Numbered from the stretch's first letter, positions 2,913-25,573 are shown. The stretch: DNA of 64,000 bases from Nannocystis sp. RBIL2 (GCF_026626745.1 NZ_JAPNJW010000001.1:588311-652310); one strand, 5' to 3'. The notes: a model not told the origin generated them from the sequence alone. Numbers and translations: made by a program.

Positions 2913-4403
2913 ATGCCCCTTCGCACGCCTTCGCTTCGCACCCTGCTCGGTTTCGCCTTCACCCCCGCGCTCCTGCTCGCGAGCGGCGCGGCCTGTGACG
3001 TCGAGCCCGAGGCCGACATCGACGAGCTCGCGGCAGACGACGAGATCGCGCCCCGCTCGCTGACCCTCGAGCCCAACGATCCGCTCTACCATTCGGGACA
3101 GAAGTGGCACTACGGCGCCATCTCCTTGCCCGAGGCCTGGTGGCTGACCACCGGCTCGCCCGCGGTCACCATCGCCATCGCCGACAGCGGCACGCTCCCT
3201 CACTCGGAGCTCACCTGGTCGAGCGGCTACGACTTCTTCGTCGGCGACCCCGACCCGACCGATCCGGGGGACTTTCACCACGGCATCCACGTGGCAGGCA
3301 CCCTCGCCGCGGCCGCGAACAACGGCGTCGGCGGCGCGGGCATCTGCTGGGGTTGCAAGCTCCGTCCGATCCGCGTCAAGCAATCCGGCGGCGGCGCCCA
3401 GGTCGGCGACCCCGGGATGAACGAGCCGACCACCACGCTGCTCGCCCGCGCGATCCGCTACGCGGCCGGCCTGCCGACCGACAACGGCCGAGGCGAGACG
3501 GTGCAGGCCAGCTCGCGCGCCGATGTCATCAACATCAGCATCGGCAACCTGGCGCAGCCGTGCCCGGCCGACCTCAAGGACGCCATCGACAAGGCCTCGG
3601 AGGCCGGCACCGTGGTGGTGGTCGCGGCGGGGAACGGCGACTCCGGGACCACCTGGCCGCCGAGCCCCGACTTCAACGCCTCCAATTATCTGTGGCCGAG
3701 GTGCCAGAACCCCGACCTGATCGTGGTCACCGCGGTCGACGCATTCGGCAACGCCGAGCCTTACGCCCTGCAGTCCAACCCCCTCGCCAAGTACCCCGGC
3801 ATCACGATCGCCGCCCCGGGCGGCTCGGCGGTGAACGGCCAGGCCGGCAACGGCGCCCTCCTCGGCTGCCCCTCCGATCCGACCCAAACCGGCACCCACG
3901 GCGTCGTGTCGACGTGGATCCCCTACGCGCAGACCGGCCCGCAGTGCCACCGCCACTGGGCCGGCACGTCGATGGCGGCGCCGCACGTGAGCGGCGTGGT
4001 CGGCCTGATGCGCGCCCGCAACCCCGCGCTGACGGCGTCGCAGATCAAGCAGATCCTCGTGAAGACTGCCAAGCCCATCCCGTGCACGAACTGCGGCGCC
4101 GGTATGGTCAATGCCTTCGGCGCCGTCCAGGCCTCGACCTTCACCCTGTCGATCACGTGTGAGTCGACCGGCGGCGGCGGCTATGCATGCACCTCGTCGC
4201 CGACCGGGCTCGGGCCGTGGACCGCCACCTGGCAGGGCGTCCTGAACGCCGCGGTCAACCCGGCCTACGCCAACAACCCCACGACCACCCACGGCACCTG
4301 CACCGTGAACACACAGGCGCGGGTGCGCGCGACCCTCACCGACGCGCTCGGCCGCACCGCGATCGCCGAGGACTCCTTCCTCTGCAGCCAGCTCCCGCCG
4401 TGA
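2913..4403 (+). CDS. S8 family subtilisin-like serine protease, lipoprotein
   Basis: A signal peptide plus lipobox (LLASGAAC) is present. The catalytic triad is seen in D (AIADSG), H (HGIHVAGT) and S (GTSMAAPHVSG). Confidence 0.85.
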   Translation: MPLRTPSLRTLLGFAFTPALLLASGAACDVEPEADIDELAADDEIAPRSLTLEPNDPLYHSGQKWHYGAISLPEAWWLTTGSPAVTIAIADSGTLPHSELTWSSGYDFFVGDPDPTDPGDFHHGIHVAGTLAAAANNGVGGAGICWGCKLRPIRVKQSGGGAQVGDPGMNEPTTTLLARAIRYAAGLPTDNGRGETVQASSRADVINISIGNLAQPCPADLKDAIDKASEAGTVVVVAAGNGDSGTTWPPSPDFNASNYLWPRCQNPDLIVVTAVDAFGNAEPYALQSNPLAKYPGITIAAPGGSAVNGQAGNGALLGCPSDPTQTGTHGVVSTWIPYAQTGPQCHRHWAGTSMAAPHVSGVVGLMRARNPALTASQIKQILVKTAKPIPCTNCGAGMVNAFGAVQASTFTLSITCESTGGGGYACTSSPTGLGPWTATWQGVLNAAVNPAYANNPTTTHGTCTVNTQARVRATLTDALGRTAIAEDSFLCSQLPP

Positions 4404-6029: not shown

Positions 6030-6395
6030 TCATGACGGCTGCCGGGGTCCCAGCTTCGCCGCGCACTCAGGCTCCCTGACGTCACAACAGGTACACGTAG
6101 CCTCCCCGTTCCACTCGCCGCACGTCCCCTCCCACAGCGGCGTCTCGTCGATCGACGTCCTGTCGCGGTTCCAGGACCGACAGTGCTCCTGGCAGTCGAT
6201 CGTCGTATACTTGCCGCTCCGGCACGTGTTCAACGTGTGGCCCTTGCAAAGGCTCAGCCAGCACGACGACTCGACAGTCGTGCGCGACTCGGGCGTCGAA
6301 GCGACGGGAGCCGCGGGCTTCGGCGCCTCCACGGCGGCCTGGCGCGTACAACCGACCGCGAGCGCCATCACCTGTGCGATTTTCCCGATTCGCAT
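6030..6395 (-). CDS. small cysteine-rich lipoprotein
   Basis: Signal peptide plus lipobox (LAVGC). Eleven Cys residues in 121 aa. Confidence 0.45.
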   Translation of the reverse strand: MRIGKIAQVMALAVGCTRQAAVEAPKPAAPVASTPESRTTVESSCWLSLCKGHTLNTCRSGKYTTIDCQEHCRSWNRDRTSIDETPLWEGTCGEWNGEATCTCCDVREPECAAKLGPRQPS

Positions 6396-6511
6396 CGTCG
6401 AACACTACCACGCCCGACCCCTCGGCATTCCGGACCGCGAGCGTTCACAAGCCGTAGCGCGGGACCCCGGGAGGACTTCGGACCGGCAGTACTAGCCTGC
6501 GCCGACGGGAT

Positions 6512-6550
6512 CGGCGGCAGCTGTCTTCAAGGACAGCTTCCGCCGCTCCC
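6512..6550. repeat. CTGTCTTC..GGACAG palindromic repeat, copy 1
   Basis: Sequence is CGACGGGATCGGCGGCAGCTGTCTTCAAGGACAGCTTCCGCC. It is a direct repeat of the copy at 7410-7460 and flanks gene 6601-7233. Confidence 0.6.
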
Positions 6551-6600
6551 CGCGACCTGGCGCTCGCCTCCGCGGTCCGCCCGCACGAGCGGGGCGATTC

Positions 6601-7233
6601 TCACAGCTTGCTCCACTCCTCGGCGGGCGTCGGCGCGGGGGCCGTGGGCCAGTAGTAACGGTCGGGGCGCGCGGTCATGTCGAGGCGGAGCACGCCGGTC
6701 ACGGTGGCCCTGACGCCGCGGCGGGTGTTGTCGAGCGGGCGCGTGAGCTCGGAGCCGTCGGTCTTCACGTCGACGACCCGGCCGCCCTCGAAGGTCACGC
6801 GCATGGCAGTGTCGTACTCGTCGTTGCACTTCTCGGTGCCGGCGATCTGGTCGGGAAAGACCCGGCCGTCAGCGAGCGTGAGGTCGAACAGGAACCAGTT
6901 GTACTTGTTGGAGGCGCCGTAGCGGCAGTGCGTCACGACCTCGCGCACCTCGCCGAACCACAGACGGGCGTTGGCGGCGGCCTGGGGGATGATCCCGGGC
7001 CACCAGCTCGAGTCGAGCTCGCCCGTCTCGTTGCCGTGGCCCTTCTCGAGCCCGTCGATCCGCTCGTTGAACAGCGCCACGATCTTGGGGTTGGACGTAT
7101 CGCCGGGCATCTTCGGCGGATAAAACTGCGCCGGCAACTTCATGCTGCCAGTCATCACCAGCACCGCGCCACCGATCGCTATCACCGCGAGGCTGGCGAC
7201 GATGCCCACGACGATCTGCGTACCCTGCTTCAT
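6601..7233 (-). CDS. membrane-anchored hypothetical protein
   Basis: A GGAGG RBS lies 7 bp upstream of the ATG. N-terminal TM helix (IVVGIVASLAVIAIGGAVLV). The 210-aa product is otherwise non-repetitive. Confidence 0.7.
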   Translation of the reverse strand: MKQGTQIVVGIVASLAVIAIGGAVLVMTGSMKLPAQFYPPKMPGDTSNPKIVALFNERIDGLEKGHGNETGELDSSWWPGIIPQAAANARLWFGEVREVVTHCRYGASNKYNWFLFDLTLADGRVFPDQIAGTEKCNDEYDTAMRVTFEGGRVVDVKTDGSELTRPLDNTRRGVRATVTGVLRLDMTARPDRYYWPTAPAPTPAEEWSKL

Positions 7234-17867: not shown

Positions 17868-19535
17868 ATGAAACTGTTTGTATGGGGGAGCAGGGGTGCA
17901 TTTGCGACGGTGCTCGTCGCGGCGGGGTGCGGAGACAGCGGCGTCGCGGTCACCACCGACACGGCCACGACCGACACGGCCACGCAGGCGACGACCAGCG
18001 GCGACAGCAGCAGTGAGCCGGCCCCGACCACCGGCGTACCGACCACCGGCGACAGCACGCTCGGCACCGGCGACGCCACTGATTCGACCACCACCACCAC
18101 CGGCGACACCACCACGACCTCGACCACCACCACCTCGGTCGACACCACCGACGCCACCACCACCTCGGTCGACACCACTGATTCGACCAGCACCGGCCCC
18201 GCCCCGTTCTGCGGCGACGGCGACGTCGACGACGGCGAGGCCTGCGACGACGGTCCGGCCAACGCCGACGACGGCAACTGCACCCTCGCCTGCGCCGAGG
18301 CCGTGTGCGGCGACGGCCTCGTCCACGCCGGAGTCGAGGCCTGCGACGACGCCAACGACGACGACGACGACGCCTGCAGCAACACCTGCGCCCTCGCCAC
18401 CTGCGGCGACGGAGCGGTCCAGAACGGCGAGGCCTGCGACGACGGCAACGCCGACGACACCGACGCCTGCCTCTCCACCTGTCTCGCCGCCAGCTGCGGC
18501 GACGGCCACGTCCAGGCCGGCGTCGAGCAGTGCGACGACGGCAACGCCGACGACACCGACGCCTGCCTCTCCACCTGCCAGGCCGCCAGCTGCGGCGACG
18601 GCCACGTGCAGGACGGCGTCGAGGCATGCGACGACGGCAACCCCGACGACGGCGACGCCTGCCTCTCCACCTGCCAGGCCGCCATCTGCGGCGACGGCCA
18701 CGTGCAGGCCGGCGTCGAGCAATGCGACGACGCCGACGCCGACGACAGCGACGCCTGCCTCGCCGATTGCAAGGCCGCCACCTGCGGCGACGGCGTCATC
18801 CACGTCGGCGTCGAGCAGTGCGACGACGGCAACGACATCGACGGCGACGGCTGCACCAGCGCCTGCACCGTCCCGACGACCTGCGAGGACCTGCAAGCGG
18901 CCGTGCCGATGCTGCCGAGCGGCGTCTACGTCGTCGACCCCGACGGCGTCGGTGTCCAGGCCGGCTACCCCGTCTTCTGCGACATGGTCACCGCCGGCGG
19001 CGGCTGGACCTTGCTCGAGCGCAGCCCGCTCGGCGCCCAGACCATCGGCAAGGCGCTCTACAACGACCTCCCCATCAACCCCGCCGACCCCGCCAACGCC
19101 CGCCATCGCCTGTCCAAGGCGCAGATGACCGTCCTGCGCGACCTCTCGGCAGACATGCGCATCGACTGCCGCGGCGACGACTATCTGCTGACCGCTGCCG
19201 GCAACCTGTTCAATGGTCAAGGCGGACCGAACAGCTGCTTCAATTGGTCGCAGGTGCTCTACAAGGAGGCCCGCCTCAAGGGCAACTTCGTGCAGAACAA
19301 GACCATCTGCACCTGGCACGTCGGCACCTCCGAGGGCTGCGCCGGCGCCTGGCACATCGACGAGGTGGCCCAGAACCAGTACGGCTGCGGCCTCGTCAAC
19401 TACCCGTGGAAGGGCGCCGCGGTCGTCAGCCCCTCCGCCGACACCTTCGCCACCGACCCCAACACCCTCGACGCGGTAGGCCCGATCCACGACTGTCACA
19501 AGCCCGGCGCCGCCCGCTGGCTGATGGTCCGCTGA
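17868..19535 (+). CDS. lipoprotein with 7 Myxococcus cysteine-rich repeats and a C-terminal fibrinogen-related-like domain
   Basis: Lipobox LVAAGCGD. Seven tandem CGDGxVxxGxEACDDGNxDDxDACxxxC repeats are present. The C-terminal domain contains [21 protein letters not shown], resembling the fibrinogen-related domain (FReD) CDM-TDGGGWTV motif. Confidence 0.75.
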
Positions 19536-20538
19536 TCGCCGGGTTTCCTGCCGAACGCCGTACCACGCGGCGTTCGGCCGGTCTCCTCAATGGGCCTCGC
19601 GCCGCCCCCACGCCCCGTCACATCGATCACACATTCGTAGCCGGCGGTGCCCATTGCGAATGGGGCCTCACGGTCGAGGTCGGCGCTCCTCGCCCGATTC
19701 CAATGATAGCCTGTCGCCCTCGCCCTCCGGGTCAGTCGGCCCGCACTCGCGGCGCCGCAGCCGACCCTCGACCACGCGCCCGGCCCGCAGGCCCATCGGC
19801 GGGGCGCGCGCCGCGTCCGCCTCGCGAATGCGCACCCGGCCCTCCGGCCGAGTCGCGGCGCCGCGCCCGGCTCGCCCTCGTCCGCGTTTCGTCGGACCTG
19901 GCCGCGACCTTAACAAAGGAGTTCGCCACCGCCGCGGGAACAGCGTACTGACCGCGCCCACGCGCCCTGGCGCGGCATTGCGCGTCGATGCGACAGTGCC
20001 GACCCGCGCCGTCGCATCGCGCGAGCGGTGCATTTGCCGCGCGGACACAATGGCCATTGCCAGCCCGCGGGCCGCGTGCGGGCCCGCGCGGCGCGGGAAT
20101 CGGCACAGACCGCCGTCACGCCTTTCCGAACCCTCCCGCGTCGTCGCCAACCATGTGCATTTCGCCTGCGCTGCGAATCAGCCGCTGATCGGAATCGCCA
20201 CTTCCTGCGCTCGTCGGGCCCTCCGCCCACATCGCGGCACCGGTAGCGAATAGAACACGCATCATTTCCCCGCATGGCAGTTCGGGGCTCGCTTCGAATC
20301 GCGCGACCCGGCGCAGCGTGGTTTTCCTGGCCCTCCGCGCGCTGGGTCGCGCATTCCTCAGTCACGAATGCATCGTTTAATTAATCTTCGTTCCCCGAAA
20401 TTGTCTTGACGCCTCGCGATGACGGAGCGTAACCTCCGCCCGCGAGCTCGAACCGCGAAGGGCCGAATTTCGCCGACACGGCCCCCTGTCGAGCAGAATT
20501 GGAAAACGGCAGCAGAGCTGTCGGTGAAAAGGATAGTC

Positions 20539-21936
20539 ATGTCGATCGCAGGAAAGCCGGGAAATGATCAGCAGACCAGCCTCTCGACGGCTGCAGCGCG
20601 CCAGCTCGCCACGACGACGAAGTCCCCGCCGCAGATGCAGGGAATCTCGTCCCGCTGGCTGCTCAAATTGTTGCCCTGGGTGCACGTCAACGGCGTCTTC
20701 CGCCTCAATCGTCGCCTGAGCTACGCCGTCGGCGACGGCCGCGTCACCTTCTACAACACCGGCGCCAAGATCCAGGTCGTGCCGCTGGAGCTGACCGAGC
20801 TGCCGCTGTTCCGCGGCTACGAGGACCTCGAGGTGCTCAATGTGCTCGCCGGCCGCTTCGTGCAGAAGGAGTTCAAGGCGGGCGACGTGCTGACGCAGAA
20901 GGGCAACGAGGCCAACGAGATGGTCCTCATCGCCCATGGCAAGGTCAACAAGATCGGCACCGGCAAGTACGGCGACGAGAGCGTCCTGGAGACCCTGGCC
21001 GACGGTGATCATTACTCGTACCAGGCGATCCTCGAGTCGCAGGACTACTGGGATTTCACCGCCAAGGCAGTGACCGCCGGCAGCGTCCTGACGCTGTCGC
21101 AGGCGTCCTTCGAGGAGCTGGTCGCCCAGCACCCGTCGCTGCGCAAGCACGTCGACGAGTTCAAGGCGCGCTCGCAGAAGAAGCAGGACAACAGCGGCCA
21201 GGCCGCGATCGAGGTCGCCTCCGGCCACTCGGGCGAGCCCGTGCTGCCCGGCACCTTCGTCGACTACGAGACCTCCCCGCGGGAGTTCGAGCTCAGCGTC
21301 GCCCAGACCGTCCTGCAGGTCCACACGCGCGTGGCCGACCTGTTCAACGACCCGATGAATCAGACGCAGGAGCAGCTGCGCCTGACCGTCGAGGCGCTGA
21401 AGGAGCGCCAGGAGCACGAGCTCATCAACAACCACGAGTTCGGCCTGCTGCACAACGCCGACCTCAAGCAGCGGATTCACACCCGCAGCGGCCCGCCGAC
21501 GCCGGACGACATGGACAACCTGCTGGCGCTGGTGTGGAAGGAGCCGGCCTTCTTCCTCGCCCACCCGCGGACCATCGCGGCGTTCGGCCACGAGTGCAAC
21601 CGCGCGGGCATCTACCCGACGCCGATCGACCTGGGCGGCCATCACGTCCCGTCGTGGCGCGGCGTGCCGATCTTCCCCTGCAACAAGATCCCGATCTCCG
21701 ACACGCGCACCACCTCGATCCTGCTGATGCGCGTCGGCGAGAAGAACCAGGGCGTCATCGGCCTGCACCACAAGGGCATCCCCGACGAGATCGAGCCGAG
21801 CCTGTCGGTGCGCTTCATGGGCATCAACGAGAAGGCGGTCATCTCGTACCTGGTCAGCCTCTACTACTCGGCCGCCGTCCAGATCCCGGACGCGCTCGGC
21901 ATCCTCGAGAGCGTCGAGATCGGCCGCGCCGACTGA
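20539..21936 (+). CDS. family 2B encapsulin shell protein with inserted cNMP-binding domain (Cnb-like), paralog 1
   Basis: An AAGGA RBS lies 7 bp upstream. A CAP-like cNMP-binding domain is present ([46 protein letters not shown]). It is about 60% identical to the next gene. The gene sits immediately upstream of a GPP-methyltransferase / terpene-cyclase pair, as in cnb-mibS-gppmt operons. Confidence 0.7.
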
Positions 21937-22017
21937 GGCCCTCGTCGCACCCATCGGCGCTCCGGTCCTCGCGGCCCGGGGCGCCTCCGTCCGTGATGCC
22001 AGCCTGGAGACGTTGAC

Positions 22018-23421
22018 ATGTCGATTTTCGAGAAGTCCGGCCGTGATGGCGACGGACAGCAGCCGATGAGCCTCGGGACCCGAGCCGCGCGGCAGCTGGC
22101 GACGACCACCAAGACCCCGCCGCAGAACCAGGGGCGCACGCCTCGCTGGCTGTTGCGCTCGCTGCCCTGGGTCGACGTCACCGGTGGCACGTTCCGCGTC
22201 AATCGCCGCATGAACGTCGCGGTCGGGGACGGGCGGATCGAATTTACCAACATCGGCGCCAAGGCTCAGGTGATCCCGGCCGAGCTCACCGAGCTGCCGC
22301 TCCTGCGCGGATTCGCCGACGACGAGGTGCTCTCGCACCTCGCCAGCCGGTTCGTGCAGTCCGAGTTCAAGCCGGGCCAGCTCATCGCCGAGCGCGGCAA
22401 GCCGGCCGACCACGTGTACCTGCTGGTCCACGGCAAGGCCAACAAGCTCGGCGAGGGCCCCTACGGCGACGAGATCATGCTCGAGGTGATCGCCGACGGC
22501 GCGCACTTCGGCGATCACGCGCTCGTGCAGGACGACGACGCCTGGGACTACAGCGTCAAGGCGGTCACGCCGTGCATCGTCCTCGCGCTGCCGCAGACCG
22601 TGTTCGAGGAGCTGATCGGCCGCTCGGCCGCCCTGCGCGCGCACGTCGAGCGCTACAAGGAGCTGCTGAAGACCCCGCAGGACAAGCACGGCCAGGCGGC
22701 CATCCGCTTGACCGCGGGCCACCACGGCGAGGTCACCCTGCCGGGCACCTTCGTCGATTACGAGGCCTCGCCGCGCGAGTACGAATTGAGCCTCGCGCAG
22801 ACCATCCTGCAGCTCCATTCGCGGGTGTCGGATCTGTTCAACGATCCGATGGACCAGCTCGAGGAGCAGCTGCGCCTGACCATCGACGCCCTGCGCGAGC
22901 GGCAGGAGCACGAGCTCGTCAACAACCGCGACTTCGGCCTCCTTCACAACGCCGACTACAAGCAGCGGATCAACACCCGCAGCGGCCCGCCGACGCCCGA
23001 CGACATGGACGAGCTGCTGTGCCGGCGCCGCAAGACCCGGTTCTTCCTGGCCCACCCGCGGACGATCGCCGCCTTCCGCCGCGAGTGCACCCGCCGCCGG
23101 CTCGATCCGCCGAACGTCGAATACGAGGGGTCCATCGTCGCCGGCTGGCGCGGCGTGCCGATCCTGCCGTGCGACAAGATTCCGATCTCCGAGACGCAGA
23201 CCAGCTCGATCCTCGCCATGCGCGTCGGCCAGGACGCGCAGGGCGTCATCGGCCTGTATCGCAGCGGCCTCCCCGACGAGCGCGAACCCGGCCTGTCCGT
23301 CCGCAGGATGGGCACCAACGAGAAGGCCGTCGCCTCGTACCTCGTCAGCACGTATTACTCCGCAGCGGTCCTGATCCCGGACGCGCTCGGGATCCTGGAA
23401 AACATCGAGATCGGGCGCTGA
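22018..23421 (+). CDS. family 2B encapsulin shell protein with inserted cNMP-binding domain, paralog 2
   Basis: Collinear homology with 20539-21936 ([34 protein letters not shown]). Contains a cNMP-binding domain. Confidence 0.7.
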
Positions 23422-23475
23422 GCGCCCCCGCCGAGCGAGGCGCCACCTTGGGGCGCCTCGTCACAGTGCAACGAA

Positions 23476-24332
23476 AGAGAACCAACGATCACGAACACGC
23501 CCACCACGGCCAATAGCGTCCTGCGCAGCGAATACCAGAAGTCGGTCGCCAACTACTGGAACACCAACCAGAACGACCCCGTCAATCTTCTGCTCGGCCA
23601 CGTCGACGGCTACTACCACCACCACTACGGAATCGGCGCCGTCAATTGGTCGGTGCTGGAGCAGCCCGAGGCCACGCGCGACGACGCCATCATCCGCGAG
23701 CTGCACCGCCTCGAGCACGCGCAGGCGGAGCATCTGCTCAAGAAGCTCGGCCCGATCAAGCCCGAGAGCCGCCTGCTCGACGCCGGCTCCGGCCGCGGCG
23801 GCACCAGCCTCATGGCCCACGAGCGCTTCAAGTGCCAGGTCGACGGCGTGTCGATCTCGGAGTACCAGGTCGGCTTCGCCAACGAGCAGGCCGCCAAGCG
23901 CGGGTACACCGACAAGCTGAAGTACCACTTCCGCAACATGCTCGACACCGGCTTCGAGACCGGCTCGATAGACGCCATCTGGACCAACGAGACCACGATG
24001 TACGTCGACCTGTACAAGCTGTACGGCGAGTTCTCGCGGCTGCTGAAGGACGGCGGGCGCTACGTCTGCATCACCGGCTGCTACAACGACATCACCGGCG
24101 CGACGCCCAGTACATCTGCAACATCCACCCGCGCAGCGAGTACTTCGAGGCGATGGCGGCCAACAACCTCGTCCCGATCGAGGTCACCGACCTGACCCCC
24201 GACACGATCCCGTACTGGGAGCTCCGGACCCGCTGCTCGGTCGCCACCGGCGTCGAGGATCCGTTCCTGCGGGCCTACAAGGAGGGCAGCTTCCACTACC
24301 TCCTCATCGTCGCGGACCGCATCGTCCGCTGA
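23476..24332 (+). pseudogene. geranyl diphosphate 2-C-methyltransferase (SAM-dependent), apparently frameshifted and lacking a canonical start
   Basis: SAM motif I is LLDAGSGRGGTS, and GHVDGYYHHHYGIGAV...ELHRLEHAQAE is conserved. The reading frame switches near 24100-24116 between CYNDITGA and QYICNIHPRSEYFEAMAANNLVPIEVTDLTPDTIPYWELR, across ORFs 23653-24195 and 23646-24332. There is no ATG/GTG/TTG between the upstream stop at 23421 and the conserved N-terminal region. Confidence 0.55.
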
Positions 24333-24425
24333 CCATGACGGCGCCGGCCGGGGGTATGATCATACCTGCCGGCCGCTGCGATTTTCGCCGCCGCTCCTCG
24401 GCGGCCGCTGCAACAGAGGCGAGCG

Positions 24426-25573
24426 ATGACTGAGGCCAAGCGCACGACGGACCCGAACGATGTATCCGCCCTCCTCGCCGGACCGACCGGCCTGGGGACG
24501 CACGCCGCTCGCCTCGCGCAGCTGCTGAATCGGGCCGCGCCGGCGTTCTCGACCCGCCGCAGCCGGCCCTCGATCCCGCGTACGCCTGGCGGCGCTGGGG
24601 CGACGGCAGCGGGTCGTCGCTGTACTGCCCGATCACCGAGCGCATCAACGAGCCGCTGGCCGACGAGGTCGACGAGCGGCTCGCGGTCTGGGCCAAGGAC
24701 TGCGGCTTCGACGACGACGAGATCGTCAAGATCCGCAAGACCCGGTTCGGGCGGCTGGTGATGCTCACCCACGCCGATTGCGACGATCCGGACCGGCTGC
24801 TCATCGGCGCCAAGATGAACGCCGCGTGGTGGGCCGCCGACGACTACTACGCCGACGACAGCGCGCTCGGGGCGGTGCCGGAGCAGCTGCCGCCGCGCCT
24901 CGTCCTGGCGATGGCCGCCATGGATCCGCTGCCGCGCGCCGGCGAGTTCAGCGTCCCGCTCGAGCAAGCGATCGAGGCCGAGCGCGTGCTCGTCGCCCTG
25001 CGCTCGGGCCTCGAGCACATGGGCCGCTACGCCACGCACGAGCAGGTCCAGCGCACCTGCTACTCGACCTTCGCCATGTTCGTGTCGTGGAGCGCCTACG
25101 CGGCGTGGCGCCACACCGGCGAGTACCCGCCTGCCTGGAACTACCTGGCCGCGCGCCAGCACGACAGCTTTTACACCTCGATGACGCTGTGCGACGTCAT
25201 CGGCGGCTACCGCCTGCCCCCCGAGCTCTTCTACGACGCGCGGATCCGCCGCGCCGCGTTCCTGGCCGGCACGACGGTCGTCCTCGTCAACGACCTCTAC
25301 TCGGTGGCCAAGGACCTCGAGGACGCGAAGCCGCCGTGCAACATGGTCCTGCAGGTCGCGGCCGATCGCGGCTGCTCGATCGACGAGGCGACCGAGGTCA
25401 CCGTCCAGCTCCACAACGACCTCGTCCGCGACTTCGAGGCCAGCCACCGCGAGCTGCAGGCCGTCCCCAGCGTCGAGCTGCAGCGGTTCCTGCGCGCCCT
25501 GCGGGCGTGGATGGGCGGCGCGTTCGAGTGGCACGACAGCAACCCGCGCTACAAGACCGGCCGCAAGCCGTAG
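24426..25573 (+). CDS. class I terpene cyclase, 2-methylisoborneol-synthase-like (N-terminal region shows an apparent frameshift near 24540)
   Basis: Metal-binding motifs are DDYYADD and the NSE triad NDLYSVAKDLED. The conserved upstream helices (LYCPITERINEPLADEVDERLAVWAKDCG...FGRLVMLTHADCDD) are in frame with the body. They lack an in-frame start before the ATG at 24758. The only upstream ATG (24426) is in another frame. Confidence 0.6.

Follow-up and report, generated by a model that had tools for sequence, protein, structure and literature searches.

The Nannocystis locus described here is most likely a copy of the known four-gene encapsulin operon for the musty odorant 2-methylisoborneol (2-MIB) in which the biosynthetic half is dead and the shell genes are intact. 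Within the window, by which we mean the whole 64-kb stretch of DNA analysed, positions 20539-25573 hold four + strand genes, whose identities were established here by Pfam and NCBIfam matches: two shell genes (Enc1 and Enc2), a geranyl diphosphate (GPP) 2-C-methyltransferase and a 2-MIB-synthase-type cyclase. The cnb-gppmt-mibS logic put forward in an earlier, sequence-only reading (Family 2B shell, GPPMT and 2-MIB-synthase-like cyclase) is present. The features referred to below are as follows.

20406..20435, + strand: promoter-like element TTGACG-N18-TAACCT, about 100 nt 5' of Enc1, kept across Nannocystis loci in an upstream alignment
20539..21936, + strand: Enc1, Family 2B encapsulin shell protein, 465 aa, ORF intact (PF19307, PF00027, NF041163)
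22018..23421, + strand: Enc2, Family 2B encapsulin shell protein, 467 aa, ORF intact (PF19307, PF00027, NF041163)
23491..24332, + strand: geranyl diphosphate 2-C-methyltransferase gene, disrupted (NF041943, GPPMT)
24426..25573, + strand: 2-MIB-synthase-type class I terpene cyclase gene of the Family 2 encapsulin cargo type, disrupted (NF041167)
24759..24763, + strand: TGATG overlap, read from the sequence, of TGA 24759-24761 (end of a 111-codon stub) and the in-frame ATG 24761-24763 of the cyclase frame

The myxobacterial host of Nannocystis type that had been suspected was confirmed, with 95.5% nucleotide identity to N. pusilla CP185339.1. The gene order Enc1-Enc2-MT-TC (methyltransferase, terpene cyclase) with intact enzymes is shared by N. 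bainbridge, N. punicea and two N. pusilla genomes (Na p29 and CP185339.1), as well as by three Nannocystaceae/Polyangia MAGs; in intact relatives the methyltransferase has 288 aa and the cyclase 377-384 aa. In CP185339.1, N. punicea FL3 (CP114040.1) and N. bainbridge BB15-2 (JAQNDL010000002.1), whose loci are 89-95.5% identical to the window in nucleotide sequence, the shared order extends to Enc1-Enc2-MT-TC-Lhr-Fpg, and both enzyme genes are intact, whereas the window has a lost start codon, a 25-nt deletion and a 1-nt deletion. A 2-MIB cluster has been reported in Nannocystis FL3 (PMC10435759).

The two adjoining paralogs of about 465 aa with cNMP domains noticed at the outset were borne out at 465 and 467 aa. 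The SrpI-like family PF19307 matches Enc1 with an E-value of 7.1e-136 and Enc2 with 2.9e-133, all 254 profile positions being covered, and the cNMP-binding domain PF00027 lies ahead of the shell domain (residues 110-198 in Enc1, 116-202 in Enc2). An inserted domain of cNMP-binding fold is the feature that tells encapsulin 2B from 2A. In keeping with the proposed Family 2B identity, the family 2B shell model NF041163 scores 750.9 bits for Enc1 and 745.9 bits for Enc2 against a cut-off of 400, and the 2A model NF041162 scores lower (384 and 362 bits, respectively). The RxLATTTKxPPQ motif attributed to the first product occupies Enc1 residues 21-32, with a 12-residue counterpart in Enc2. Enc1 truly starts at ATG 20539, which is preceded by the conserved AAAAGGATAGTC; the ATG that opens the ORF, at 20419, is not the true start and sits within the spacer of the promoter-like element. 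A consensus scan gave no strict sigma-70 site, and for this reason we regard the element upstream of Enc1 only tentatively as a putative promoter.

Structural comparison points the same way, and the suggested HK97 fold was upheld. The best solved relative of Enc1 is Enc1 of Streptomyces lydicus (9BJE, E 1.6e-189), that of Enc2 is S. lydicus Enc2 (9BIX, E 8e-184), and alignment over ~450 residues with the cryo-EM shells 9BHU, 9BJE and 9BIX gives ~60% identity for both window proteins. Although the AlphaFold2 shell model is of low confidence (pLDDT 59), Foldseek still places the 9BHU, 9BJE and 9BIX shells at the top, along with 6X8M and 8T6R. Enc1 and Enc2 are Family 2B shell proteins of HK97 type, for which icosahedral assembly is predicted; NCBI already names their orthologues 'family 2B encapsulin nanocompartment shell protein'. 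Historically, such proteins were annotated as CRP/EshA-type cyclic-nucleotide-responsive transcription factors, which would here control the terpene genes; many database homologues are still labelled 'CRP-like cAMP-binding protein' or 'Crp/Fnr family transcriptional regulator', and the PF00027 domain is indeed present in both proteins. We find this reading highly improbable, as an SrpI-like HK97 domain makes up their C-terminal 250 residues, their ~60% identity is to proteins solved as icosahedral shells, and the canonical phosphate-binding Arg of CAP-type domains is replaced (FTAKA in Enc1, YSVKA in Enc2, read from the sequence). No helix-turn-helix family is among the Pfam matches of either protein, and the CRP and FtrB NCBIfam models stay below 30 bits against cut-offs above 200. 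EshA itself is a shell protein whose CBD does not bind cAMP (PMC11550324). A role as a CRP/FNR-type transcription factor has been refuted for homologues.

Enc1 and Enc2 lie 81 nt apart and form a two-component pair by the definition of PMC11071501, which asks for two Family 2B shells encoded no more than 10 kb apart. They are 62.8% identical to each other and were assigned here to the two classes defined by S. lydicus Sl-Enc1 and Sl-Enc2 (PMC11071501; 9BJE, 9BIX), both diagnostic motifs (motif 1 being xVWK in Enc1 and RRRK in Enc2) being present: in Enc1, LVWK at residues 331-334 and the 10-residue motif 2 at 362-371; in Enc2, RRRK at residues 336-339 and motif 2 at 366-375. The S. lydicus genes belong to an actinobacterial operon of the xylulose-kinase type with no identified cargo, and their products form mixed shells whose tiling is irregular. 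The same Enc1/Enc2 cassette occurs in the Myxococcus geosmin cluster (Enc1 77%, Enc2 68% identical to the window). Enc1 clusters with the Myxococcus Enc1 and Enc2 with myxobacterial RRRK-type shells, each with bootstraps of 200/200, the clades being set apart by TVWK/LVWK against RRRK. The pair is thus, as judged from sequence, a conserved class pair orthologous to that of Myxococcus and not a recent duplication; the sequence-only reading had spoken of a duplicated shell. Neither is a two-shell version noteworthy outside actinobacteria, since it is common in Proteobacteria (PMC8346489, PMC11071501) and the M. xanthus shell has been characterised: 114 proteobacterial Family 2B terpene-cyclase operons have been described, commonly with two shell genes ~60% identical (Andreas & Giessen 2021, PMC8346489), and among 503 two-component operons the proteobacterial and cyanobacterial ones carry mainly terpene cyclases (PMC11071501).

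The methyltransferase and cyclase said to lie downstream are there by identity (NF041943 and NF041167), but neither is an intact ORF; these lesions had been overlooked in the earlier note. The methyltransferase was described as collinear with GPPMT, which it is not in any simple sense, since it matches NF041943 in two frames (positions 1-191 at 331.6 bits, 197-272 at 134 bits) and has no start codon; to count as intact, a GPPMT had to reach at least 400 bits within a single ORF that has a start codon. Its start, 23491-23493, reads ACG, with no ATG, GTG or TTG at that position, and aligns with ATG in all five relatives compared. Between 24100 and 24101 a frameshifting deletion has removed 25 nt that are present in 5/5 relatives, so that the frame from 23491 terminates at 24195 and the C-terminal 76 codons lie in another frame, ending at 24332. 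Across the deleted stretch the methyltransferase of an intact relative aligns gap-free to the GPPMT structures 4F84 and 3VC1.

In the cyclase gene, the downstream frame matches positions 53-366 of NF041167, the model for 'family 2 encapsulin cargo terpene cyclase', at 446.7 bits (cut-off 400), and the class I Mg-binding motifs expected of the enzyme, of DDxxD and NSE type, were located as DDYYADD at 24839-24859 and NDLYSVAKDLE at 25289-25321. Among solved structures, the isoprenoid synthase 4ZQ8 and the 2-MIB synthase 3V1V (E ~1e-39) come closest to it, together with a further 2-MIB synthase entry, 3V1X. Where 5/5 relatives have GGGCCC, one C of CCC is missing from the window (between 24534 and 24535), and this 1-nt deletion puts codons 1-36 (from ATG 24426) out of frame with the catalytic domain at 24536-25573. 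In a tblastn search, the N. bainbridge cyclase matches the window in one frame with residues 1-37 and in another with residues 38-383. The cargo-loading motif GPTGLGT (24480-24500), kept in nearly all homologous cyclases and occurring nowhere else in the window, falls within the N-terminal stub; the longer loading motif GPTGLGTHAARL spans 24480-24515 and is out of frame with the enzyme, whereas in all relatives the two are joined in frame. No canonical start occurs in the catalytic frame before 24758/24761, 112 codons in, and re-initiation at the TGATG overlap could yield a cyclase of 270 aa without the loading domain and ~60 N-terminal residues of the catalytic domain.

These lesions were compared across five relatives at 89-97% nucleotide identity (two N. 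pusilla, N. punicea, N. bainbridge and one Logan contig), and all three, the start codon, the 25-nt and the 1-nt deletion, were observed in the window only (0/5 relatives). If they were sequencing or assembly errors, the operon would work and 2-MIB would be made in a two-component shell, as in relatives. The cyclase lesion, 1 nt in a homopolymeric C-run, is indeed typical of long-read assembly error, and it resembles a G-run frameshift in Enc1 of N. pusilla Na p29, which was assembled from Nanopore R9.4 data (PMC10435759). An artefact is nonetheless quite unlikely: the change of ATG to ACG is a base substitution, the loss of 25 nt is no homopolymer error, and neither is a typical sequencing error. 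The three lesions also fall within ~2 kb, as against zero frame breaks in ~13 kb of coding sequence from the flanks and the shells: both shell genes and eight flanking genes, the 1495-aa Lhr among them, each keep one frame. The cyclase also carries P65S, unique to the window at a position invariant in 33 homologous cyclases. Counting against decay, the deletion allele was sought in JGI metagenomes and was not found there; the possible re-initiation at the TGATG overlap weighs on the same side. On the window branch the ratio of non-synonymous to synonymous changes (N/S) is 11/5 for methyltransferase and cyclase vs 48/74 for other genes (p = 0.03), but this does not discriminate relaxed selection or set the window lineage apart, because a similar pattern (5/2 vs 32/81) is seen on the branch of N. 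pusilla CP185339.1, where the genes are intact.

Genuine decay, then, is the reading we prefer, and what was lost can be pictured from published homologues, on which our view of shell assembly, cargo loading and product is modelled. In the intact operon, two HK97-fold shell proteins would together build a mixed Family 2B shell, their CAP-like domains facing outward; the cyclase would be drawn in by a short disordered N-terminal loading domain (GPTGLGT...AARL) binding a hydrophobic luminal patch; and a free methyltransferase would convert GPP to 2-methyl-GPP, which would enter the shell and be cyclised to 2-MIB. The S. griseus shell encapsulates 2-MIBS by way of such an N-terminal domain (PMC11550324), Enc1 and Enc2 form mixed shells (PMC11071501), and M. 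xanthus has a two-component shell with GeoA as cargo (bioRxiv 10.64898/2026.07.21.739788). All of the SgEnc cargo-loading-site residues (L, L, F, Y) are kept in Enc1, and Enc2 has Arg at the position of SgEnc F430.

The S. griseus SgEnc (EshA)/2-MIBS/MT operon (PMC11550324; 9BHU) likewise has a Family 2B shell with external CBD, 59-61% identical to the window shells, and a cargo with a disordered loading domain bearing GPxGxGT, the methyltransferase staying outside. It differs in its single shell gene, its order of shell-cyclase-MT, a loading domain of ~120 residues vs ~50 in the window, and a cyclase type only distantly related to that of the window (E ~1e-39 to 3V1V). Outside myxobacteria, the closest methyltransferase and cyclase are those of the cyanobacterial cnbA-mtf-mtc-cnbB 2-MIB operon (PMC3072421, PMC12159092), at 76-77% and 72-73% identity, respectively, to the N. 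bainbridge enzymes; the window cyclase itself shares 76-77% identity with its counterparts in cyanobacterial 2-MIB clusters. A pair of Family 2B shell genes and the GPTGLGTSAARL motif occur in that operon too, but the shells flank the enzymes, whereas those of the window precede them, and both are RRR-type. The Pseudanabaena pair, 83% identical to each other, is by its sequences a lineage-specific duplication rather than an Enc1/Enc2 pair. From the 72-77% identity to cyanobacterial 2-MIB-cluster cyclases, together with reported production in Nannocystis (N. exedens makes 2-MIB according to Dickschat 2007, as cited in PMC11550324), we infer that the product of the intact cyclase would be 2-MIB.

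A further possibility is that the shells have been kept for other cargo encoded elsewhere, such as geosmin synthase, and that the locus is a functional shell-only module. Neither shell ORF is broken, and non-synonymous changes in them are few along the window branch (N 3, S 7); the two are orthologous to the Myxococcus pair that packages GeoA, a 753-aa two-domain cargo encoded upstream of the shells in a cluster without a methyltransferase. Among the best 120 matches listed, each Nannocystis species has only one Enc1-class gene. A geosmin cluster was reported in every strain analysed, Nannocystis among them (PMC10435759), and 88% of GeoA loci without an adjoining shell gene are in genomes with a Family 2B shell elsewhere (bioRxiv 10.64898/2026.07.21.739788). 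In N. radixulma, Enc1 is intact while Enc2 and the methyltransferase have been lost independently, which fits retention of a shell but, with Enc2 gone, is also evidence against strong selection for the pair. Since recent decay predicts intact shells equally well, and no further ORF bearing GPxGxGT occurs within the window, we consider a shell-only function possible, if rather doubtful.

In conclusion, the literature already covers two-shell Family 2B terpene operons, proteobacterial as well as cyanobacterial, the mechanism by which shells take up their cargo, and a 2-MIB cluster in Nannocystis; what is new here is decay at the level of a strain. With no start codon and a 25-nt frameshift, the methyltransferase is most likely dead, and the 1-nt deletion would uncouple the cyclase loading motif from its catalytic domain. 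Because both terpene genes carry inactivating lesions, the suggested link to the earthy odorant probably fails for this strain, which is predicted to make no 2-MIB from the locus, yet both shell proteins are still encoded intact.

The operon consists of two encapsulin shell genes followed by two terpene-biosynthesis genes (coordinates are window positions):

20539-21936, plus strand: Enc1, 465 aa
22018-23421, plus strand: Enc2, 467 aa
23491-24332, plus strand: methyltransferase region
24426-25573, plus strand: terpene-cyclase region

Both shell proteins matched the Pfam profiles PF19307 (SrpI-like encapsulin shell; E-values of 7e-136 for Enc1 and 3e-133 for Enc2) and PF00027 (cNMP-binding). 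Against the NCBIfam equivalog NF041163 ('family 2B encapsulin nanocompartment shell protein'), Enc1 scored 751 bits and Enc2 746 bits, well above the cut-off of 400 bits. These matches bear out a sequence-only reading of this DNA, which had proposed two adjacent shell paralogs with a cNMP domain. Enc1 and Enc2 also aligned end to end with Family 2B shells solved by cryo-EM from S. lydicus (Sl-Enc1, PDB 9BJE; Sl-Enc2, PDB 9BIX) and S. griseus (SgEnc, PDB 9BHU), at 56–62% identity (E-values of 1e-172 to 1e-189). A Foldseek search with an AlphaFold (AF2) model of Enc1 ranked these same three shells highest along with two Family 2A shells (6X8M and 8T6R), ahead of CAP-like domains; the model, built from a 30-sequence alignment, is itself of low confidence (pLDDT 59, pTM 0.40) and lends weak support to the shell identity. 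Downstream, the methyltransferase matched NF041943 (geranyl diphosphate 2-C-methyltransferase, GPPMT) and the cyclase matched NF041167 (family 2 encapsulin cargo terpene cyclase; 446.7 bits, cut-off 400 bits); the cyclase motifs cited previously, including NDLYSVAKDLE, are present in the window. The combination of profile matches, solved structural relatives and motifs means that the locus identification is correct, far beyond chance.

Although all four genes and the cited motifs are indeed there, both terpene genes are broken, a point missed by the sequence-only reading. Alignment with five relatives – N. bainbridge (L001), N. punicea (L002), a Logan contig (L003, 97% identity), and N. pusilla Na p29 (L004) and CP185339.1 (L039) – revealed three window-specific lesions in the terpene half, without counterpart in any of the five. 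The methyltransferase begins with ACG at 23491-23493, where all five relatives have ATG, and the next in-frame canonical start lies 54 codons downstream. A 25-nt deletion between 24100 and 24101 takes out the GRSRAVSEI codons and causes a frameshift, which puts the final 76 codons outside the reading frame translated from upstream; the NF041943 match is accordingly split over two frames (profile positions 1-191 and 197-272). The methyltransferase of an intact relative aligns with the crystallised GPPMTs 4F84 and 3VC1 without gaps across the deleted stretch. In the cyclase, whose N-terminus and catalytic domain lie in different frames, a 1-nt deletion (GGGCCC to GGGCC) follows codon 36, between 24534 and 24535. 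The Family 2 cargo-loading motif GPTGLGTHAARL at 24480-24515, its sole copy in the window, lies in the resulting 36-codon stub and is therefore uncoupled from the catalytic domain; no second cargo with a loading motif was found within the window. At 24759-24763 (TGATG), the TGA of the frameshifted stub overlaps an ATG of the cyclase frame, where re-initiation could yield a protein of at most 270 aa, which would be missing the loading domain as well as ~60 catalytic-domain residues.

Inactivation is likely to be genuine for the methyltransferase at least. Both shell genes and eight genes in the flanks, together amounting to ~13 kb of coding sequence with a 1495-aa Lhr helicase gene among them, each occupy a single frame relative to their orthologues, whereas the three lesions are clustered within 2 kb, which argues that they are genuine, as does the fact that a substitution and a 25-nt deletion are atypical of read errors. 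The cyclase substitution P65S, unique to the window at a position invariant in 33 homologues, also counts in favour of genuine lesions. A284T had been considered as a second such change, but it also occurs in the intact N. pusilla CP185339.1 gene, leaving only P65S as window-specific. Against genuine lesions, we counted the position of the 1-nt cyclase deletion in a homopolymer run, the failure of the 25-nt deletion junction to find a match in a scan of JGI metagenomes, and the Enc1 gene of N. pusilla Na p29, which is frameshifted in a G-run in a similar manner. In the latter (L004, ~2995-3000), a 1-nt deletion changes CCCTGGGTG to CCCTGGTG and shifts the frame near codon 48; it is probably an assembly error, because that assembly was built from Nanopore R9.4.1 reads only (PMC10435759). 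Enc1 is intact in the other N. pusilla genome. Relaxed selection was dropped as evidence for true pseudogenes. A first count gave an N/S ratio of 16/12 versus 27/67 (p = 0.007), and addition of the closer N. pusilla genome gave, on the window branch, 11/5 for methyltransferase plus cyclase versus 48/74 for the other genes (p = 0.03); intact N. pusilla CP185339.1 is skewed likewise on its own branch (5/2 versus 32/81), and the excess therefore does not discriminate.

The shells had been described as duplicated, yet they are not recent copies of one another. Enc1 and Enc2 share 62.8% identity overall, with the cNMP-fold domain (51%) less similar than the C-terminal shell domain (71%). Each has both of the diagnostic motifs by which the shells of two-component Family 2B systems are assigned to the Enc1 or Enc2 class (PMC11071501), the first being LVWK in Enc1 and RRRK in Enc2. 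In neighbour-joining trees (200 bootstraps), the Nannocystaceae Enc1 and Enc2 were never sisters (0/200); Enc2 clustered with RRRK-type shells of other myxobacteria (200/200), and Enc1 with that of the Myxococcus geosmin cluster (200/200; 77% identity). On the basis of these trees and the class motifs, the pair is not a recent duplication but a conserved myxobacterial Enc1/Enc2 cassette. An early neighbour-joining tree had placed Enc1 as sister to cyanobacterial Cnb, implying horizontal transfer together with the enzymes. We rejected this scenario for the shell: once the Myxococcus geosmin-cluster Enc1 was added, the Nannocystaceae Enc1 fell inside the myxobacterial Enc1 clade (200/200).

As judged by sequence identity, the nearest neighbour of the enzymes differs from that of the shells. 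For the window cyclase, identity reaches 76-77% with cyclases from cyanobacterial 2-MIB clusters and 55-58% with the closest actinobacterial ones, and the N. bainbridge methyltransferase follows the same pattern (76-77% versus 64-67%). In Myxococcus, the Enc1/Enc2 cassette instead adjoins a 753-aa geosmin-synthase-type gene, and experiments have demonstrated that the pair encloses GeoA in a mixed shell (bioRxiv 10.64898/2026.07.21.739788). Cyanobacterial 2-MIB clusters differ in that two shell genes, both RRR-type, flank the enzymes; the Pseudanabaena pair shares 83% identity, pointing to a lineage-specific duplication. Actinomadura/Spirillospora loci (L018-L036) hold the closest actinobacterial relatives of the cyclase, in the gene order cyclase-methyltransferase; these cyclases retain a GP[ST]GLGTSAAR loading motif, which in one of them reads GPTGPGT. 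In the flanks fetched for these loci (7 kb where the contig allows), no Family 2B shell gene is present; shells, if any, must therefore be encoded elsewhere.

By analogy with characterized systems (PMC11071501, PMC11550324), Enc1 and Enc2 of an intact operon would assemble together as a mixed icosahedral shell bearing the cNMP-fold domains on its exterior, and the disordered N-terminal domain of the cyclase would load it by binding a hydrophobic patch near the three-fold axis. In SgEnc this patch comprises L264, L285, F430 and Y441 (PMC11550324), the four hydrophobic residues under the cargo-loading-domain density. All four are conserved in Enc1, while Arg replaces F430 in Enc2, and we infer from this difference that Enc1 is the main cargo-binding subunit. 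The codon for this Arg (Enc2 residue 430) lies at 23305-23307, within SVRRMG (23296-23313). Other myxobacterial Enc2-class shells have Arg, Lys or Asn at this position, and Enc1, Sl-Enc1, Sl-Enc2 and SgEnc have Phe; in myxobacterial mixed shells, only Enc1 may bind cargo. The methyltransferase, which has no loading motif, would presumably work outside the shell, supplying 2-methyl-GPP to be cyclised to 2-MIB inside it. cAMP binding by the cNMP-fold domains is unlikely, given that SgEnc lacks it (PMC11550324) and that the phosphate-binding Arg of canonical CAP-type domains is absent from both proteins (FTAKA in Enc1, YSVKA in Enc2). In this strain, the 2-MIB pathway is predicted to be off.

At the nucleotide level, the N. 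pusilla complete genome CP185339.1 is 95.5% identical to this region over 13.4 kb, and N. pusilla Na p29 is 94.7% identical. Enc1 shares 98% identity with an N. pusilla protein, and Enc2 matches its N. bainbridge counterpart at 92% and that of N. punicea at 88%. Upstream of the operon, the following stretches were compared:

19536-20538 of the window: upstream of Enc1
7099-7440 of L001: the N. bainbridge stretch
7142-7447 of L002: the N. punicea stretch

Across these species, only the last 270-490 nt before Enc1 are conserved. In N. bainbridge and N. punicea, a small cREC_REC-domain gene (PF20274) precedes a ~1-kb non-coding gap before Enc1; it has no match in the window. At 17868-19535 (plus strand), the window encodes a large, secreted-looking protein with a Thr/Asp-rich linker, ~6 cysteine-rich repeats (CGDG..V..GVE.CDDGN.DD.DAC) and a distinct C-terminal domain, an orthologue (79% identity) of a DUF4215-flagged N. 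bainbridge gene. An Rfam search and a promoter/terminator scan found no regulatory RNA, strict sigma-70 promoter or terminator for the operon. Rfam family RF02735 (Sernc350, 'Saccharopolyspora sRNA 350', antisense type; gathering score 50) matched opposite the 5' third of both shell genes:

20577-21065, minus strand: RF02735 match, 134.5 bits
22055-22559, minus strand: RF02735 match, 109.8 bits

The family seems to correspond to the antisense strand of Family 2B encapsulin genes over the part that encodes the N-terminus and cNMP domain, and the matches probably stem from conservation of coding sequence; an antisense transcript at these positions is conceivable.

The system itself adds nothing new, as two-component terpene-cyclase operons, the loading motif and myxobacterial occurrence have all been published. 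A survey that listed 904 terpene-cyclase operons of Family 2B (114 proteobacterial) noted associated C-methyltransferases, the GPTGLGT motif and frequent pairs of shell genes at about 60% identity (Andreas & Giessen 2021, PMC8346489), and 503 two-component operons have been described, the proteobacterial and cyanobacterial ones mainly with terpene cyclases (PMC11071501). The shell-cargo mechanism is established for 2-MIB synthase (PMC11550324) and for a myxobacterial two-component shell (bioRxiv 10.64898/2026.07.21.739788), compartment-associated CnbA and CnbB have been reported for a cyanobacterial 2-MIB operon (PMC12159092), and a 2-MIB cluster has been reported in Nannocystis FL3 (PMC10435759). 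Nannocystis orthologues are already correctly named at NCBI. The finding is therefore the correct recognition of a known system: its identity stands, but the novelty claimed for a two-shell operon does not, nor, probably, does the implied odorant production, given the disrupted enzymes. For the same reason, calling a 2-MIB cluster present in annotation or genome mining would be misleading for this strain. What is new is at the strain level only, namely the decay described here and a separate decay in N. radixulma.

In Nannocystis radixulma (L007, NZ_JAQNDN010000001.1, ~6300-6900), the same operon has decayed separately, with Enc1 intact. The first ~11 codons of Enc2 are fused out of frame to its last ~121 codons, with ~1 kb deleted, and a methyltransferase remnant of ~15 codons is fused to cyclase codon 26; N. 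radixulma thus lacks both the methyltransferase and the GPTGLGT loading motif of the cyclase. The routes of loss differ, with point lesions in the present strain and kilobase deletions in N. radixulma. One reading, which we consider rather unlikely, is that the 2-MIB enzymes were lost independently in at least two Nannocystis lineages while an Enc1-class gene stayed intact in both, the shell having a role beyond its neighbouring cargo. If true, the shell would package, for example, a geosmin synthase or another loading-motif protein encoded elsewhere, and 2-MIB production would have been repeatedly selected against in some niches. Within the genus Nannocystis, one encapsulin operon thus occurs naturally in intact, half-decayed and deleted form, a series that could be used to ask whether shells are maintained without neighbouring cargo.
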